DNA from: a virus
UHGV virus genome: UHGV-0204626
DNA: 39,893 bases
Strand: one strand, 5' to 3'
The notes beneath the pieces were generated by a model. The model was not told the DNA's origin. It saw nothing but the letters and a program-made list of their open reading frames with translations, and made no database searches. Both the position numbers and the translations under genes were made by a program. Below, one piece after another: positions 30,272 through 39,300 of this stretch; the first letter of the stretch is position 1, and every line of letters starts with the position of its first letter.

Positions 30272-31621
30272 ATGGCTACGTGGCAACAGGGTATTAATTC
30301 TGGTGGTTTTCTGGCTGGCATCGGTACGCAAAATGAGAATGCGCCAAAGGCAAGCGACATTAACGCAACGCTTGGTCTGATCCGCGAAAACAATGAACTG
30401 GCTCGCTCAGGTGCAAATAACGTTGGCCTGACCGCGTTACGTGGTCTGGCTGGAGTTGCTGATATTTACAATCAGGAACAGCAACAGAAAGCGATTAATG
30501 CGTTCAATAAGGTTCATGCTGATGCATGGGCTTCTGGTGATCCATCGGGACTATTTAAGTTTGCCCAGGAAAATCCAGCGTTTGTTGCACAGGCACAACA
30601 GGCGTTTTCCGGTCTTAATGAGCAGCAACGCAACGATATGGGCGATTTAGCCATGAGGGCTAACGTCGCTCTTTCTCAGGGACCGGAAGCCTACAGTAAA
30701 TTCATTACTGATAACAAGGACAGGTTAAATCGCGTGGGGGCGAATGCTGACTGGATGATTCAGACAGGTATCCAGAATCCAGAGCAGCTATCACACATGT
30801 TGACTACTATGTCTCTCGGTGCACTTGGGCCAGAAAAGGCGTTTGCTGTTCAGGATAAGATGGTTGGTCGCCAACTAGAGAAAGGGCGATTGGATGAAAG
30901 CATCCGTCAGGCTGATATGGAGAATGCGAGAGGATGGGCAAATATCCAGAACGCTCAACTAGACAGGACTCAGCGGGCACAAATGCATAATGATAACGTA
31001 GCCCTGAAGTTGCAGGAATTAGGGATGAAACAACAGGAAAGCGGAAAGATTGACCCAAAACTTGTTCGAGATCTGAATAGTGATATTAATGGGTTCTCAA
31101 AGAATTATTCTGCAATGCGCAGTGCTTCTGACAACCTACAAGCCCTTGGGAAGCGCAACACTCCAGCCGCGCAGTTGGGAATGATTTTCAACTATATGAA
31201 ATCGCTGGATCCGCAATCTGTGGTACGCGAAGGTGAGCAAGTGCAGGTAAAACGCACTGATGGAATATTCGGCACACTTGGTAACTATGTTAGCCAATTA
31301 TCTAACGGCAAGATGCTGAATAATGAGCAAGTCCAAGACTTAATCAACACCTCAAAACTGATGGCAAATACTGAAGGCGAAAAGTTTAACCAGCAAATGG
31401 ATGATTATCTTTCAACTTATGGAGATTCTCTCCCCAGCGGACTAACTAAGCAATTGCAATCCAGAAAAGCCAAGCTGTATGAAGATATTCAGCAGCCTGC
31501 GCAACAACAGACACAACAAGCAACATCTGGCGGTCAAACATTTCGAGAAGGTATGACCGCGAAAAATCCTAAAACTGGTCAGAAAATTATTTACAGGAAC
31601 GGACAATGGCAACCAATGTAG
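30272..31621 (+). CDS. Ejection protein gp20-like
   Basis: 449-aa ORF at the conserved position, Gln-rich. Confidence 0.8.
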
Positions 31622-33759
31622 GTTTACCAGAGGGGTTTGTTCTTGATGAACAGCCTGATAACTCACAGCTTCCTGATGGCTTTGTGCTTGATTCCCAACC
31701 AGAACAGCAGCAATCTCCTTTGGTTTCACCAGAGGAAAATTCCAGACAGGAAAACGTGGTTAATAAAGCCAACGGTTTCGACCGTTTTATGTTTGGCGTT
31801 CTCAGTGGGTTGATGGATGTTGGTAAAGGTGTTGGCCTATTTCAGGATATGACACCAGAAGAGCAAGCCGCAATTCAGTCTCTACAGCAGAAGTTAGCGG
31901 CAAAACCATCAACCGCACAAGATGTTGGTGAGTTTGTTGGACAAGCAGCACCATTTGTTAGTGGTGGTGGGATTATTTCTCAGGTTCCGAAAGGGGCGGC
32001 AAGGCTGGCTGCCGCCGCAGGGCTTGGTGCTGGAGAAGGGGCTATTGTAGCCAATGGAACAAATAGCGATGTTGCTTCCGGCGCTGCTATTGGCGCTGTG
32101 GCTGGCCCCGTAGCCGAGATTGTTGGTCCAGCGCTTGGGAAGATTGCAGGAAAAATTAAAAATAGTGCCGGAGATATTTACCGCTCATCCGTAGGGATGG
32201 GTAGTAAATCATCTAAAGCAACGTTAAAGAAAGCTGCTGGCGCAATGGATAATAAATTTATTGGCGGGCAACGAGCTATTCAAGATTTCGCCGATGAAGT
32301 TAATCCTGATTTTAACGCGATAAATGCTATTCGTGAGCTAGAACTGGAAAATTATGCCACTCCAGGCATGATCTCTAATAATCCTGCTGTCAGGGCTCTT
32401 GATAATGCAGTGGCAAGTCTTCCTGGAACAGAGATTAGTGAGGCGCATAAGCGTTTTATTACTGAATTAGGAAGAAAAGCTGATGAAATGATAACTTCAT
32501 TTGGGGGAAGCCTTGATAAGCAACTGGTTTCTGACAGGCTTGCAGATAATTTTGATAAAACCATTTCATCATTACAAAATCAGTCAGATAACATCTACAA
32601 CAAAATTGCCGAAAAGGTTCCGGTAAGAGACCGGATTGAGGCCACTAATACGTTGAATTTTTTAGAGGATTTTGCTGATGACATAGGGGGAATTGATGAA
32701 TTATCTCCAATAATGAAGCGGACATTGAACCGACTTGATCCAAACACCTTGCCAACGTATGGGCGTTTAGATCTCGCCAGAAAGCAGGTTGGGCAAGCTA
32801 TTGGCAAAGGCTCTGGCCCATTCAAGGATGAAGAAACAGGTGTTCTTAAAAAGTTATATGCAGCTATAACAGATGACCAACAGGCTGTCGCAGAAAAATA
32901 TGGCGCAGGGGAGTTATGGACGCTTGGTAAGGAGTTGGTAAAAAAACGAAAATCCATTGAAGATGATGCCGTAACCGTTTTGGGTAGAAAACTTCAGCAA
33001 TCAGCAATTCCAAAAGTTGAAAGTGCCGTTGTTAATATGGCAAAAGGAAACGGTGGTGACTTTAGGCAATTAATGAAGTCAATTCCAAAGGATATGCGGC
33101 AGGAAGTTGCGCTCACTTCAATGAATAAAGCATTTACCAGCTATGCTAAATCACCAGGTCAGCAATTAGGGGTTGATGGATTTGTAAAATGGTATAACGG
33201 AATGTCACGCAATGGGGCCAATATGAAGGCTCTCCGTGATGCTATTGGCACAGATGCATCAAAGCGCCTTGATACGATTTATCAAGCAGCCAAGGCTATG
33301 AATAGACTCAATACTGGTAAGCAGTATGCTAGCAGCCTTGTGGATCAGCAAGTTAATAACTTTCTGAAGGAAAAGGGTAGTCTAGCAAAAATTTATGGAA
33401 TAGCCTCAAAAGCTGCTGCGGCGGAAGGTGTTACAAGCTTATCTGGTCTTCCTGGTGTAGGTGCAACAGGGGTGATAACGTCCGCATTGATGTCAGGGAA
33501 AACAAGCAGGATAAAGGCTGCTGATGCTCTACTGTCTTCTCCTGAGTTTAAATCAATGCTATTTCGCCTGCAAAACGCACCAGTAGACAAAGCAGAAGTG
33601 AGACGCGCAATAGAAAGGAAACTGATGCAATCTGGGGCATTTAAGAGATGGGAGAAAACCCTATCAACAGATGAAGCAAAAACCATAGCTCGCACTGGCA
33701 TTATTACATGGTTATCTCAGCAAGATACTACAGCCAGTGACGGCGACCAAAAGATGTAA
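31606..33759 (+). CDS. Ejection protein gp16-like
   Basis: 717-aa ORF, the last structural gene before the immI-like region; contains Gly/Ala-rich hydrophobic stretches. Confidence 0.8.
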
Positions 33760-34036: not shown

Positions 34037-34426
34037 TTAGCATTTTCTTTTTACTTTTCCAACAAAAGCTTTGGTTGAATCCATATTCCCATAACCAGAA
34101 ATGGTTTTCGACATTAAAACTGTTCCATTAGGATGTATTACCCATGAGTCGATAACTCGTTGAGTTTCGCCATTCGCGCCGATTCCAATGATGGAGTTTT
34201 TAGACAATGCTTTGTAAGCCATGCCGCCCGCATCTGTCCCAGAATATGTGATGCTGGCATCTTCACCGCTTGTCTTAATGATGAATGTTCCACTAAAACC
34301 ATCTTCTTCCGGATGGAAATTATTTCGTTCTGAATAGCTTATTCCGCGCATATCTCCAACGACCCAGCACTCTGCTGTAGCCCCAAAAGATATGAATAAG
34401 AACATAGCAGCAAGAAATTGCTTCAC
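34037..34426 (-). CDS. Hypothetical secreted / periplasmic protein
   Basis: Probable GTG start preceded by AAGAGG, giving the signal peptide (V/M)KQFLAAMFLFISFGATA; the six-frame ORF extends upstream to 34498. AT-rich; I do not recognise the protein. Confidence 0.55.
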   Translation of the reverse strand: MKQFLAAMFLFISFGATAECWVVGDMRGISYSERNNFHPEEDGFSGTFIIKTSGEDASITYSGTDAGGMAYKALSKNSIIGIGANGETQRVIDSWVIHPNGTVLMSKTISGYGNMDSTKAFVGKVKRKC

Positions 34427-34643
34427 ACCAACCTCTTTAGTTTTTCTAGTTACTTTGTCACGATAGGATATGCGAATTGATAAAACTAAATTGCGCACAT
34501 GATAACTCAGTAATAATTGTTAATGAAAACATGATCACCTATATTGCACAAGGCGAAACAGGAAGCATAATCTGGTTTCATGAGTGTGATCACGTTTGGG
34601 TAAATCAAAGTCAAGAGGAAATACTTGAAATTATCAAAAATAA

Positions 34644-35225
34644 CTATCTAAACGTTGCACACGACTCATCTATCCATTTTTCATAAAATTGTATACCGAG
34701 ATAGGCAAGAACAGATGGATGTATATCAACAAGCTTTTCGCCAAGATGTTCTGTTGGAGGTGGATAATCTTTGCCTTGGTTTCTTACGGTTATAGGCATA
34801 GTTGTTGCTGGATGAAACTCAACTATCATAGGGTCGCCTTCGTATTTTGCTATTTTCCCTGTTGAATCAATGATTAACTCTTTAATATAATGGCTTCTTG
34901 CTCCCGGAAATGCCCCAAGAGTAGTATAAGGAGGTTCAAGTTTTGAGATTTCCATAGTGGAATGATGATCAGCATTTCTTGCTTGGTGAAGGTAAGCAAG
35001 TGTTTTGTCTGTTTTTCTAAGCATGAACTTTTGGTTGAAGTGGCTGCTAAATTTTCCACTAACCGGCTTTGTTGCACAGAGCAACTTACTGAAAGACTTT
35101 TCTATATGCCCAAGACATTCTCGCCAGTGCATCTCAAAATCATCATGGTTTGTAGATGATTTCATCTGCTCTAGGCACTTTTTAGCTGCGATGATTTCTT
35201 TTTTTGCTGGGTTGTAATCGATCAT
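34644..35225 (-). CDS. Hypothetical protein (193 aa) co-transcribed with mnt
   Basis: Start ATG overlaps the mnt stop (ATGA), so translational coupling is likely; no signal peptide; AT-rich; I do not recognise the protein. Confidence 0.65.
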   Translation of the reverse strand: MIDYNPAKKEIIAAKKCLEQMKSSTNHDDFEMHWRECLGHIEKSFSKLLCATKPVSGKFSSHFNQKFMLRKTDKTLAYLHQARNADHHSTMEISKLEPPYTTLGAFPGARSHYIKELIIDSTGKIAKYEGDPMIVEFHPATTMPITVRNQGKDYPPPTEHLGEKLVDIHPSVLAYLGIQFYEKWIDESCATFR

Positions 35226-35470
35226 TTTGCATCCTTGCCATACATGGTTTTCAGCGTCTCAAGCAGCGCCTCTTTGAATTTATCAGCTTCTTGGTTAGCG
35301 AATCCTTCAAGTGAGCGAGAGCCATCAAGATTATCAACATGTTTTTGAAGGATAAGCACAATCTCTGAGTTCATTGATCTGCCGTTTTTATCCGCTTCTT
35401 GCTGAATGCGTTTCTTTAAATAGTCTGGAATCCTAATCCCCAATGGACTGATATCTCTTGCACCTTTCAT
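35222..35470 (-). CDS. mnt: Mnt-like ribbon-helix-helix repressor
   Basis: Internal Met start preceded by AGGAGGAGA; N-terminal RHH motif (...PLGIRIPDYLKKRIQQEADKNGRSMNSEIVLILQKH...) close to the P22 Mnt/Arc motif; divergent from the arc-ant pair. Confidence 0.75.
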   Translation of the reverse strand: MKGARDISPLGIRIPDYLKKRIQQEADKNGRSMNSEIVLILQKHVDNLDGSRSLEGFANQEADKFKEALLETLKTMYGKDAK

Positions 35471-35495
35471 TTCTCCTCCTGCACGCTGTGCGTAG

Positions 35496-35565
35496 CTACA
35501 CAGTGTAGGCAAAAAATTTTTGACTTTAAATAAACACGGTGTAGTATTTAGTTATCACGGTGTAG
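35496..35565. promoter_or_regulatory. immI-like operator/promoter region
   Basis: Perfect 13-bp palindrome CTACACAGTGTAG (35496-35508); candidate -35 TTGACT (35520-35525) and -10 TAGTAT (35542-35547); two direct repeats CACGGTGTAG (35535-35544, 35556-35565) that share the GTGTAG half-site. Confidence 0.55.
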
Positions 35566-35783: not shown

Positions 35784-36707
35784 ATGAAAAGTATAGCAAC
35801 AGCAGTATCTACTATCAATGTACCATTCCACGGCGCAGAGCTTTATGTTGTCAATCACAACGGCGAACCGTATACCCCAATGAAACCTATCGTTGAGGGA
35901 ATGGGTATGGATTGGGCTTCACAGTTTACAAAGTTAAAACAAAGATTTGCTAAAGGTATTGTGGAAATCGCAATACCTTCAGTTGGCGGTGTGCAGACCA
36001 TGATTTGCCTTGCTTTACGTAAACTGAATGGCTGGTTGCAAACCATCAGCCCTAACAAAGTCCGCCCTGAAATCCGCGACAATGTAATCCAGTATCAAGA
36101 AGAGTGTGACGATGTGCTATACGAGTACTGGACTAAAGGCCATGTAGTTAACCCACGCAAAGCTAAAAAGGCGTTGCCTGGTAAAATCACTACTGAACAG
36201 CAGGAAGCCATTAAACAACTCGTCATGAGTCGCGGTCAGTCTCTGCCAAAAGAAAAACAGGCTAAGGCGATGATCACCATGTGGTCGTCACTGAAATCCC
36301 ATTTTGGATGTTCGTACAAAGAAATCAGTGAGGAGCAGTTTACCGAAGCACTGTCACTTGCAGCTCGAGTTCCGCTTGAAGGTGAGTTCATCGGCAAACA
36401 AGAGAAGAAAACCAACGAGCTTTCTGCAAAAGAAGCAAACAGCCTTGTATGGTTATGGGATTATGCCAACCGCTCACAGGCATTATTCCGCGAACTGTAT
36501 CCGGCGCTAAAACAAATTCAATCGAACTATTCCGGCAGATGTCATGACTGCGGTTATGAGTTCTCCCGTATTATCGATATAGCGAGAGATGTTTTAATCA
36601 ATCACACACGAGATGTTGATATCAATGAGCCAGACGGACCAACGAATCTTTCCGCATGGATGAGACTTAAGAATAAAGAATTACCTCCTTCAGTTCATAA
36701 CTACTGA
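35784..36707 (+). CDS. ant: Antirepressor Ant
   Basis: 307-aa ORF downstream of arc, in P22 immI arrangement and the P22 Ant size range; Cys/His motif near the C-terminus (CHDCGYEF). Confidence 0.8.
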   Translation: MKSIATAVSTINVPFHGAELYVVNHNGEPYTPMKPIVEGMGMDWASQFTKLKQRFAKGIVEIAIPSVGGVQTMICLALRKLNGWLQTISPNKVRPEIRDNVIQYQEECDDVLYEYWTKGHVVNPRKAKKALPGKITTEQQEAIKQLVMSRGQSLPKEKQAKAMITMWSSLKSHFGCSYKEISEEQFTEALSLAARVPLEGEFIGKQEKKTNELSAKEANSLVWLWDYANRSQALFRELYPALKQIQSNYSGRCHDCGYEFSRIIDIARDVLINHTRDVDINEPDGPTNLSAWMRLKNKELPPSVHNY

Positions 36708-36726
36708 CAGATAACCAACGCAACGA

Positions 36727-36749
36727 CCCAGCTTCGGCTGGGTTTTTTT
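36727..36749 (+). terminator. Rho-independent terminator after ant
   Basis: CCCAGC-ttcg-GCTGGG hairpin followed by a 7-nt T-run. Confidence 0.7.
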
Positions 36750-36807: not shown

Positions 36808-39225
36808 ATGACAGACATTACAGCCAATGTGATCGTATCAATGCCTTCGCAACTCTTCACTATGGCGCGTTCTTTTAAAGCAGTAGCCAATGGCAAAATT
36901 TATATCGGTAAAATTGACACTGACCCGGTAAATCCTGATAACCAGATTCAGGTCTATGTTGAGAACGAAGATGGTTCTCACGTTCCTGTTGCACAGCCAA
37001 TCGTCATCAATGCCGCTGGGTATCCAGTATATAACGGACAGATTGCCAAATTCGTAACTGTGCAAGGCCATTCTATGGCTGTTTATGATGCGTATGGTGC
37101 GCAGCAGTTCTATTTTCCTAATGTGCTGAAGTATGACCCTGATCAGTTACGTCAGCAATTAGAAGACCCATATGGTGCGGAAAAATACCCTGAATTACAA
37201 ATAGCCAGATGGATAGATGATGGAGATGTAAGGGGGTGGGGGTTAAAACCAGGCTATTATTTTGATAATAGTTCTGTATGGGAAAATCTGTTAAATTCTG
37301 GACGCAAAGATTTTGTTGTGCCTTCTGGTGTTTTCAGATTTTCTAACGGAATTGATATACCAGGAGACTTTAGATTTATAGGGCAGGGCTCTCCTATTCT
37401 TGGTTTTGGCACAGATGATGATAAGCATTTTTTGTCTGAAGGAATTAAGCAAAACATGCCGGGTTCATCATTTATATTTTCTGGAAAAGGGACAAAAGAA
37501 GCCACGGCGTACAATCGCAATGACCAATTTTCAAGCGTAAGGTATTGTGTGCGAGTTATGTCACCAGAGTATGGTTCTAGTGGAGCCGTATTACGTGGTA
37601 TTGCAATAATTCAGGACATGGTCTGCTTTGATGGTGATGGTATTCCAACAACCCCTAATAATGATATGCGTTCAGATTATGAGTGTGGTGTTTATTACGA
37701 CGACTCTGCAAGAAATCTTCAGGAGGATGTTTGTGTATTCGGATACTTTTCAAAAGCAGGTACAATAATTCAGTCAAAGCAAGGAAACGATGACCCTGAT
37801 TACAATACCATTACTGGTGGGTCAACTATGGGGAGAGTCGGTTTAGCAATTCTTGGTTCAAACACTGGGCCTGCAAGTTATGGTCTCAGCGGAACTAGAG
37901 TAGATAAATGTGGTATTTATACCCTTGATCACCACAGTCGTGCATCAATGTCTCATGAAGGGCTTGTTTCTTATTACTCTAGCGCAAACACATGGCGATG
38001 CCTTTATATAGATGGTGATGTTAATGCGACATCCGCTGAAATAAATGGGCATTACTTTTATGGCTGTGAGTTTAGAACCAGAGCTAATCATGCATTAGAA
38101 TTTGATCACGCATCCAACATCCAGTTTTATGGTGGCGTGGTAGAGCAATCCCCTTATGGTATTACAAATTCAGATATTCCGACTTTTATTGGTTCTGAGA
38201 ATGTAAAGAGAGGCGTTGGTTTTTATGGCGTGCGCATGAATTATATTTCTCAGATATTTAATGACAATTTTGCTGGAGTGATTCCTGTAAAAATAATAGT
38301 TTCAGGCGATCCGCTAAACGGTAGATTTGGAGTTGTAGGTAAAGACCCAGCAGGCGGTTATACCGTTGCAATTCTTGGCTCTGATGGGAATATTGGTGAC
38401 GCATCAATTCAGTTTACGAAGAATGCTGCTGATGGGTCTACAGGATGGAAAGTGATGATGGATGCAAGCTCCGACAGACTATTGGTCAGCAAGGATGGAG
38501 AAACCATGACGTCACTCACTGAGACAGGAATGTACACTGTATCGGCTCCATCTGGTTCTGATGCTATGCTTGGCCTGCTCAGTAATGGCAACGCTACATC
38601 TTGGTTCATGAGAACACAATACAACAGTGTAGGTCAATTACAGTTCAGACATGGTGGGTCTGGAGCTACTCCAGCAATGCAAATAGCAACATCAGGGGGA
38701 ATCACTCCTGGAGCTGATGCCACTTCAAATATAGGTAGCGCATCACTACGATATAACATTGGTTATTTTGCCGGAGGAACCCAGTCAAGCTCTGATGCAA
38801 GACTTAAGGATCCGATAAGAGAAATGACAGATTCTGAAAAGTCAGCAGCTAAAGAAATAGGAGAAATGATTGGGTTTTGGACATGGATTGATGATGACTC
38901 AAAGCGTTTGCATGCAGGAATAACAGTTCAATCAGTTATATCTGTATTAGAAAAACATGGATTAAATTGGAAGAATTATTCATTTATAGGTTTTGATGAA
39001 TGGGATGACATATATGATGATGTAGTTAAAGACATCGAAGTTGAAGATGCGAATGGTAATAAAAAAATAATATCGGTTAATTCTGGAGAGAAAAGGCTTG
39101 TAAAAAAAGCAGGGAATCTTTTTCAATTTAGAGACCAAGAATTAGACAGATTTATAATGAGAGGGTTATCAGAAAGGATATCTGATATTGAAGATTTATT
39201 GATTAAAAAAGTTATTAAACAATAA
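36808..39225 (+). CDS. Tailspike protein (P22 gp9-type head-binding domain, divergent receptor-binding domain, C-terminal chaperone-like domain)
   Basis: 805-aa ORF; the first ~110 aa ([43 protein letters not shown]...[13 protein letters not shown]...NVLKYDPDQ) match the P22 tailspike head-binding domain; the central region is Gly-rich (beta-helix-like); the C-terminal ~145 aa begin with [10 protein letters not shown]. Confidence 0.9.
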
Positions 39226-39278: not shown

Positions 39279-39300
39279 AAGGTGGATCACTCCACCTTTT
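39279..39300 (+). terminator. Candidate terminator after the tailspike gene
   Basis: GGTGGA-tcac-TCCACC hairpin followed by TTTT (short T-run). Confidence 0.45.

Follow-up and report, generated by a model that had tools for sequence, protein, structure and literature searches.

The window, by which we mean the whole stretch of 39,893 nucleotides of viral DNA that was analysed, is a nearly complete P22-like genome, and the closest phage is the Escherichia coli K1 prophage CUS-3, with 94.6% identity over 65% of the query formed by positions 15000-39893. An integrase is encoded at positions 10-1188. Near the other end, the tailspike gene occupies the place usual for P22-like phages, downstream of the immI arc/ant genes and at the end of the late operon; an Arc-like gene (35225-35512, minus strand) and Ant (35784-36707; P22_AR_N/C) precede it, and injection proteins are encoded upstream of the spike. 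Two ORFs of the immI region, at 34040-34498 and 34647-35225 (both minus strand; 153 and 193 aa), and a 717-aa ORF at the position of an ejection protein (31606-33756, plus strand) had no Pfam match at E <= 1e-3. The features of the tailspike gene, all on the plus strand, are as follows:

36808-39225, plus strand: tailspike precursor gene, stop codon included; 805 aa, 88.0 kDa (from the ORF list)
36808-37146, plus strand: P22-type head-binding domain, residues 1-113 (full Pfam model PF09008; PDB matches to Sf6 and P22)
37147-37242, plus strand: neck/linker, residues 114-145, common to CUS-3-type tailspikes (DNA and protein identity to CUS-3)
37237-38559, plus strand: central right-handed parallel beta-helix, residues about 144-584
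37687-38790, plus strand: recently exchanged patch, codons 294-661 (sliding identity to positions 7321-9906 of L002, an E. coli tail fibre locus described below)
38560-38790, plus strand: distal stalk, residues 585-661, on the mature spike, homologous to T5 pb1 residues 1187-1263 (ungapped phmmer alignment to 4uw8)
38716-38718, plus strand: codon for Asp637, aligned with T5 Asp1239 (oxyanion-hole partner)
38749-38751, plus strand: codon for Arg648, aligned with T5 Arg1250 (folding sensor from the neighbouring chain)
38788-38793, plus strand: predicted scissile bond Ser661/Ser662, with Ser662 as the nucleophile, aligned with T5 Thr1263-Ser1264
38791-39222, plus strand: predicted intramolecular chaperone/Peptidase_S74 domain, residues 662-805, 16.6 kDa (Pfam PF13884 on residues 662-719)
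38806-38808, plus strand: codon for Lys667, putative general base of the Ser-Lys dyad, aligned with T5 Lys1269

The N-terminal part is that of the P22-like (Lederbergvirus) tailspikes. PF09008 (Head_binding) matched residues 1-113 with an E-value of 4.8e-66, the N-termini of the Sf6 and P22 tailspikes were retrieved from the PDB (E 1e-64 to 1e-44), and residues 1-102 are about 94% identical, as counted from the alignment, to the N-terminus of Sf6 gp14 (PDB 7sg7); an earlier, sequence-only reading of this DNA had placed a head-binding domain of this type in the first ~110 aa. In P22-like tailspikes this domain docks on the gp4/gp10 tail hub. In GenBank, the exact protein is present as DAJ78897.1 ('MAG TPA: tail protein [Caudoviricetes sp.]', from a 39.9-kb contig), and alleles 98-99% identical to it, named 'phage tailspike protein', are found in E. 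coli strains 1506 (WP_250952583.1, 99%) and C4.

The central beta-helix is predicted to be a polysaccharide depolymerase and receptor-binding domain. A megablast search against phages gave no DNA-level match to this region, only the N-terminal 341-435 nt of the gene being matched; the central 440 aa had no match among the PHROGs, and the whole protein matched no NCBIfam model. The description of the central domain as divergent, made from the sequence, was therefore a fair one, and the specificity of the spike is not inferable from named families. An endosialidase (GH58) tailspike was considered and rejected: the catalytic part of the CUS-3 protein is a sialidase (PF12217/12218/12195), whereas none of PF12217, PF12218 and PF12195 matched the present protein, whose central domain is a parallel beta-helix and which resembles the CUS-3 endosialidase only in its N-terminal and chaperone parts. 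Homologues of the beta-helix (P0022-P0038; 44-55% identical to residues 144 to about 580-660) carry other C-termini, without Peptidase_S74, among them a roughly 50-aa tail ending in GNTGWVAK and a roughly 105-aa module; thus, the same catalytic domain is combined with different endings. A paper on the E. coli O104 tailspike makes no mention of a chaperone.

A scan for promoters and terminators inside the tailspike gene gave nothing above shuffle expectation. Outside the gene, a terminator-like hairpin is present between ant and the start of the tailspike gene (36725-36744; GACCCAGC-TTCG-GCTGGGTT, then TTTTT), and the tailspike gene may rely on read-through or on a promoter of its own. A second, GC-containing hairpin, with a stem of 8 bp, is found 54 nt past the tailspike stop codon (39279-39300; AAGGTGGA-TCAC-TCCACCTT, then a short T run) and is a possible late-operon terminator; it was missed by the consensus scan because its T tract is short.

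Identity and catalytic site of the C-terminal domain

The protein ends in a segment of 144 residues, counted from Ser662, that begins with the motif S-D-A-R-L-K (residues 662-667, nt 38791-38808); the sequence-only reading had drawn attention to it as a segment of ~145 aa resembling an autoproteolytic intramolecular chaperone, for which it proposed a profile search and a structure prediction. In the profile search, the complete Peptidase_S74 model (PF13884, 'chaperone of endosialidase'; 1-58/58) aligned with residues 662-719 at 35.2 bits (E 1.6e-8), above the gathering cutoff of 22 bits, and the 144-aa fragment, used as the sole query, was matched with an E-value of 7.7e-10. The best solved relative, as found by phmmer against the PDB, is the C-terminal part of the tail fibre pb1 of phage T5 (4uw8; E 2e-26 over residues 585-798); weaker matches were obtained to 7y5s (a Klebsiella phage fibre), to 9vvr and 6eu4 (tailspikes), and to the neck-appendage chaperone of GA-1 (3gud; E 3.7e-5 by sequence). 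In a tblastn comparison, the 144-aa domain shared 40% identity with the C-terminus of T5 pb1 over 137 aa, and 53-57% with the ends of tail fibres from several E. coli phages; C-termini of PHROG tail fibres also match it (E 1e-17 to 1e-23). A word-indexed homologue search with a 169-aa C-terminal query returned only three matches, the family being seen instead through an exhaustive search of cluster representatives, which gave 4598 representatives at E <= 1e-3 and 1458 at E <= 1e-10.

In 149 of these relatives, whose host proteins differ widely in length, the S74 domain is followed by a median of one residue, and it lies almost always at the extreme C-terminus; in the spike it reaches the stop codon, and a beta-rich stalk (residues 496-634 in the model) lies upstream. 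Moreover, comparison of the chaperone domain with a diverged allele gave a pN of 0.22 and a pS of 0.83, which indicates that the domain is under purifying selection. At the level of the sequence, the protein has every feature by which members of the S74 family are recognized. We consider that residues 662-805 are an intramolecular chaperone auto-processing domain of the T5 pb1 type, carried on a P22-like tailspike, and assign to this reading a probability of roughly 0.85.

In T5 pb1 the scissile bond is Thr1263-Ser1264; the nucleophile, Ser1264, is activated by Lys1269 and leaves with the released chaperone, and the oxyanion hole is formed by Arg1250, from the neighbouring chain, together with Asp1239, an arrangement that makes cleavage dependent on the correct folding of the trimer (PMC4690869). 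The phmmer alignment, which has no gaps across the catalytic region, maps Asp637, Arg648, Ser661/Ser662 and Lys667 of the spike onto Asp1239, Arg1250, Thr1263/Ser1264 and Lys1269 of T5 pb1 (the structure 4uw8 is that of the S1264A mutant and has Ala at the position aligned with Ser662). Ser662 and Lys667 also align with Ser818 and Lys823 of the CUS-3 endosialidase. The S-x4-K spacing is thus in register with experimentally defined sites, in agreement with the suggestion that SDARLK is a Ser-Lys dyad motif, and, as judged from the alignment, the upstream Asp and Arg residues appear to have their counterparts in Asp637 and Arg648.

All four catalytic-site residues are conserved in the family. 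When the query was aligned with 149 diverse representatives (n=150), taken from the search that yielded the 4598 cluster representatives, Lys667 was found in 150/150 sequences, Ser662 in 148/150, Arg648 in 138/150 and Asp637 in 134/150; other positions are near-invariant, namely Asp663 and Gly643 (both 150/150), Gln708 and Trp732 (both 149/150) and His702 (147/150). The residue before the nucleophile, here Ser661, is Thr in 131 and Ser in eight of the 150. On the N-terminal side of the predicted cut, the homology to T5 pb1 extends over another 77 residues, as far as residue 585 (nt 38560). The SDARLK start at 38791 is therefore correct as the beginning of the domain to be released, but the functional self-processing module exceeds the interval first drawn for it (38791-39225) and starts further upstream, because the codons for Asp637 and Arg648 (nt 38716-38751) precede position 38791.

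An AF2 model of the monomer has a mean pLDDT of 82, with low confidence at residues 690-703 and at residues 638-660, around the predicted cleavage site. It shows the beta strands of the stalk (587-634), helices at 675-687 and 707-716, a long beta hairpin at 735-766 and a terminal helix at 776-804; the order of helices, hairpin and terminal helix is that described for T5, in which the counterpart of residues 638-660 is interdigitated between the chains (PMC4690869). In this monomer model, which has some low-confidence loops, the helical body and the long beta-hairpin 'tentacle' of the S74 fold can be recognized, as can the terminal helix, which would take part in the trimeric coiled coil. As the proposed structure check would have it, Foldseek retrieved chaperones of the family with this model, namely T5 pb1 (4uw8; E 1e-10), the endoNF (K1F endosialidase) chaperone (3gw6; E 2.5e-5) and the GA-1 domain (3gud; E 6e-4).

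Mosaic structure and base composition of the gene

The tailspike gene is a mosaic with at least four junctions. The first, near residue 145, closes a segment (gene nt 1-435) common to CUS-3 and to many E. coli prophages; the spike is 85% identical to the CUS-3 protein over residues 1-163, but the similarity is lost after about residue 145. Beyond this point, the spike was compared with L002, an 861-aa tail fibre of E. coli JNE25-003 and relatives (WP_157912201.1, 'tail fiber domain-containing protein'). L002 has the same type of chaperone and is 85% identical to the spike over residues 144-795, but it starts with a different N-terminal adaptor, of 200 aa, and belongs to another type of prophage, in which holin and GH19 endolysin genes come next. 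The identity is unevenly distributed. At the nucleotide level it is about 65-70% over codons 144-293, rises to 98-100% over codons 294-661 (17 of 1096 nt differ; 99% identity at the protein level), and returns to about 65% from the last base of codon 661 (gene nt 1983) onwards, the chaperones themselves being only 67% identical. The 3' end of this patch (37687-38790, matching L002 8377-9480) and the predicted self-cleavage site are no more than one codon apart.

The two flanks of the patch are equally diverged from L002, with a dN of 0.266 for residues 144-293 and of 0.267 for the chaperone; dS is saturated in both flanks and 0.05 in the patch. Equal divergence of the flanks, together with near identity of codons 294-661, implies that the recently exchanged segment is the core and not the chaperone. 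The simplest reading is that two genes, both of which had a chaperone already, recently swapped a specificity core of 1.1 kb; that the chaperone was acquired separately is less probable. A recombination boundary does lie at codon 661/662, but the modular acquisition proposed earlier for the C-terminal segment probably does not name the part that moved.

The same segment had been described as noticeably AT-rich, and it does lie in the 435-nt region of lowest GC in the window. Positions 38791-39225 have a GC content of 30.8%, whereas the central part of the gene has 41.9% and the window as a whole 47.0%. A value this low is reached by just 0.08% of the 435-nt segments in the window, the lowest of which (30.3%) begins at 38799. 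The chaperone has a GC3 of 0.19, whereas 0.32 would be expected if its codons were chosen as in residues 144-661, so that amino-acid composition explains the drop only in part: the shift is due partly to a sequence rich in Lys, Asp, Ile and Glu, and partly to synonymous sites. Along the gene, GC3 falls stepwise, from 0.42 in the head-binding domain to 0.27-0.31 in residues 114-661 and to 0.19 in the chaperone; six structural genes of the phage have a GC3 of 0.49, to which the head-binding domain comes close. The whole receptor-binding part, and not the chaperone alone, thus has a composition foreign to the phage backbone. Low GC does not characterize the family in general, since the chaperones of L002, T5 and CUS-3 have 38%, 44% and 46% GC, respectively; it is specific to this allele.

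Several of these observations could also be accounted for if the AT-rich chaperone had been acquired alone, from an AT-rich donor phage, and grafted at the cleavage motif: the segment has the lowest GC in the window, its GC3 is under expectation, the low GC is peculiar to this allele, and the nucleotide identity to L002 breaks exactly at codon 661/662. However, the chaperone and residues 144-293 are equally diverged from L002 on either side of near-identical codons 294-661, for which an exchange of the core is the simpler reading. In addition, no donor was found, and the search for chaperones more than 67% identical to that of the spike found none outside E. coli strains 1506 and C4. Finally, junctions are also present at other places, at about residue 634 (in the comparison with the M172-1 prophage tailspikes; see below) and, in homologues that have other C-termini, at about residues 580-585. 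We regard the acquisition of the chaperone alone as unlikely, and favour the exchange of the core.

A broader proposal is that recombination at the scissile bond exchanges specificity cores or chaperones between the fibre genes of unrelated phage types, by way of the conserved stretch around the cleavage site, and that the AT-rich allele came from an unsampled lineage of AT-rich phages; we regard it as speculative and unlikely. The scissile bond as a general module junction was rejected, on account of the junctions at about 634 and at about 580-585; beta-helix homologues with other C-termini diverge from the spike at about residues 580-660. Module swapping in tailspikes of this kind has been reviewed (PMC5380687).

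Predicted self-processing of the spike and known systems

By analogy with T5 pb1 and the K1F endosialidase, three 88-kDa precursor chains would join through the C-terminal domain, that is, through its helical and hairpin elements and its terminal coiled-coil helix, and this association would template the folding of the interdigitated stalk (residues 585-661) and of the beta-helix. Only in a correctly formed trimer would Arg648, from the neighbouring chain, and Asp637 build the oxyanion hole; Lys667 would then activate Ser662 for attack on the carbonyl of Ser661, and the Ser661-Ser662 bond would be cut. The 16.6-kDa domain, Ser662 included, would be released after folding, and a mature spike of 661 aa and 71.4 kDa would dock on the tail through the head-binding domain (residues 1-113). 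Trimerization, chaperone activity, cleavage and the exact bond are all transferred by us from the well-studied proteins; for cleavage, we infer it from homology to biochemically studied examples with which the identity is moderate (40% for T5, about 24% for CUS-3). A mature length of 661 aa, as first predicted from the position of SDARLK, agrees with the aligned T5 scissile bond, Thr1263-Ser1264.

It is conceivable that the domain is an S74 homologue that is no longer cleaved and is kept on the virion as a distal knob for trimerization or receptor contact; the uncertainty of the AF2 model around residues 638-660 would be consistent with this, as would the Ser, rather than the commoner Thr (131/150 as against 8/150), that precedes the nucleophile. 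However, all four catalytic-site residues are present, together with Gly643, Asp663, His702, Gln708 and Trp732. The K1F endosialidase, too, has a Ser ahead of its nucleophile (Ser910-Ser911), which counts against the uncleaved form. In the case of T5, the cleaved fibre blocks infection by competition and the uncleaved fibre does not (PMC4690869), from which retention of the domain would probably be costly. Taken with the conserved site, this makes a permanently uncleaved spike improbable. A chance occurrence of SDARLK at the end of an ordinary tailspike is ruled out by the Pfam match above the curated cutoff (E 1.6e-8), the PDB match (E 2e-26), the 1458 representatives at E <= 1e-10 and the structural matches.

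A P22-type head-binding domain and a self-cleaving C-terminal chaperone are known to occur together in the CUS-3 endosialidase (siaK1, ABQ88383.1; the CUS-3 record cites PMID 16689790), where they flank a catalytic domain in the same way as they flank the beta-helix here, but the CUS-3 chaperone is only about 24% identical to that of the spike and has 46% GC, compared with 31% here. The same architecture is also known in many E. coli prophage tailspikes, and the mechanism is common and well characterized; in precomputed Pfam annotation, PF09008 and PF13884 occur together in many clusters of E. coli tailspikes. Among these are P22-type tailspikes of 832/833 aa encoded by E. coli prophages (L005; WP_239794992.1, strain M172-1), whose head-binding domain is essentially identical to that of the spike and whose C-terminal module, of the same T5 type, is 58% identical from residue 634 and has an identical motif, although the central domain is unrelated.

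T5 pb1 has the Asp, Arg, Ser and Lys residues of the catalytic site in register with those of the spike but differs from it in several respects. It is a siphovirus fibre of 1396 aa, whereas the spike is a podovirus tailspike of 805 aa with the module placed behind a beta-helix; it has a Thr before the nucleophile, where the spike has a Ser; and its mature tip, a 'bullet' domain without enzymatic activity, binds polymannose. More distant within the same autoprocessing family is the GA-1 gp12-type chaperone of the Phi29/GA-1 neck appendage (3GUD); in phi29, the body of the domain is folded differently and the hairpins are shorter (PMC4690869). The ICA domain of MYRF is homologous to the phage tailspike chaperones and self-cleaves as a trimer, but it is a distant, eukaryotic relative, and what it releases is a transcription factor.

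For the use of the spike, the protein in the virion is predicted to be 661 aa long and not 805 aa. When the receptor-binding part is put to use, for example in fusions to pyocins or tailocins, in producing the depolymerase or in changing the host range, residues 585-805 must be kept during expression, because without them the spike may not fold. Chimeric spikes could be joined at the breakpoints, which lie near residues 145, 293, about 580-634 and 661/662.
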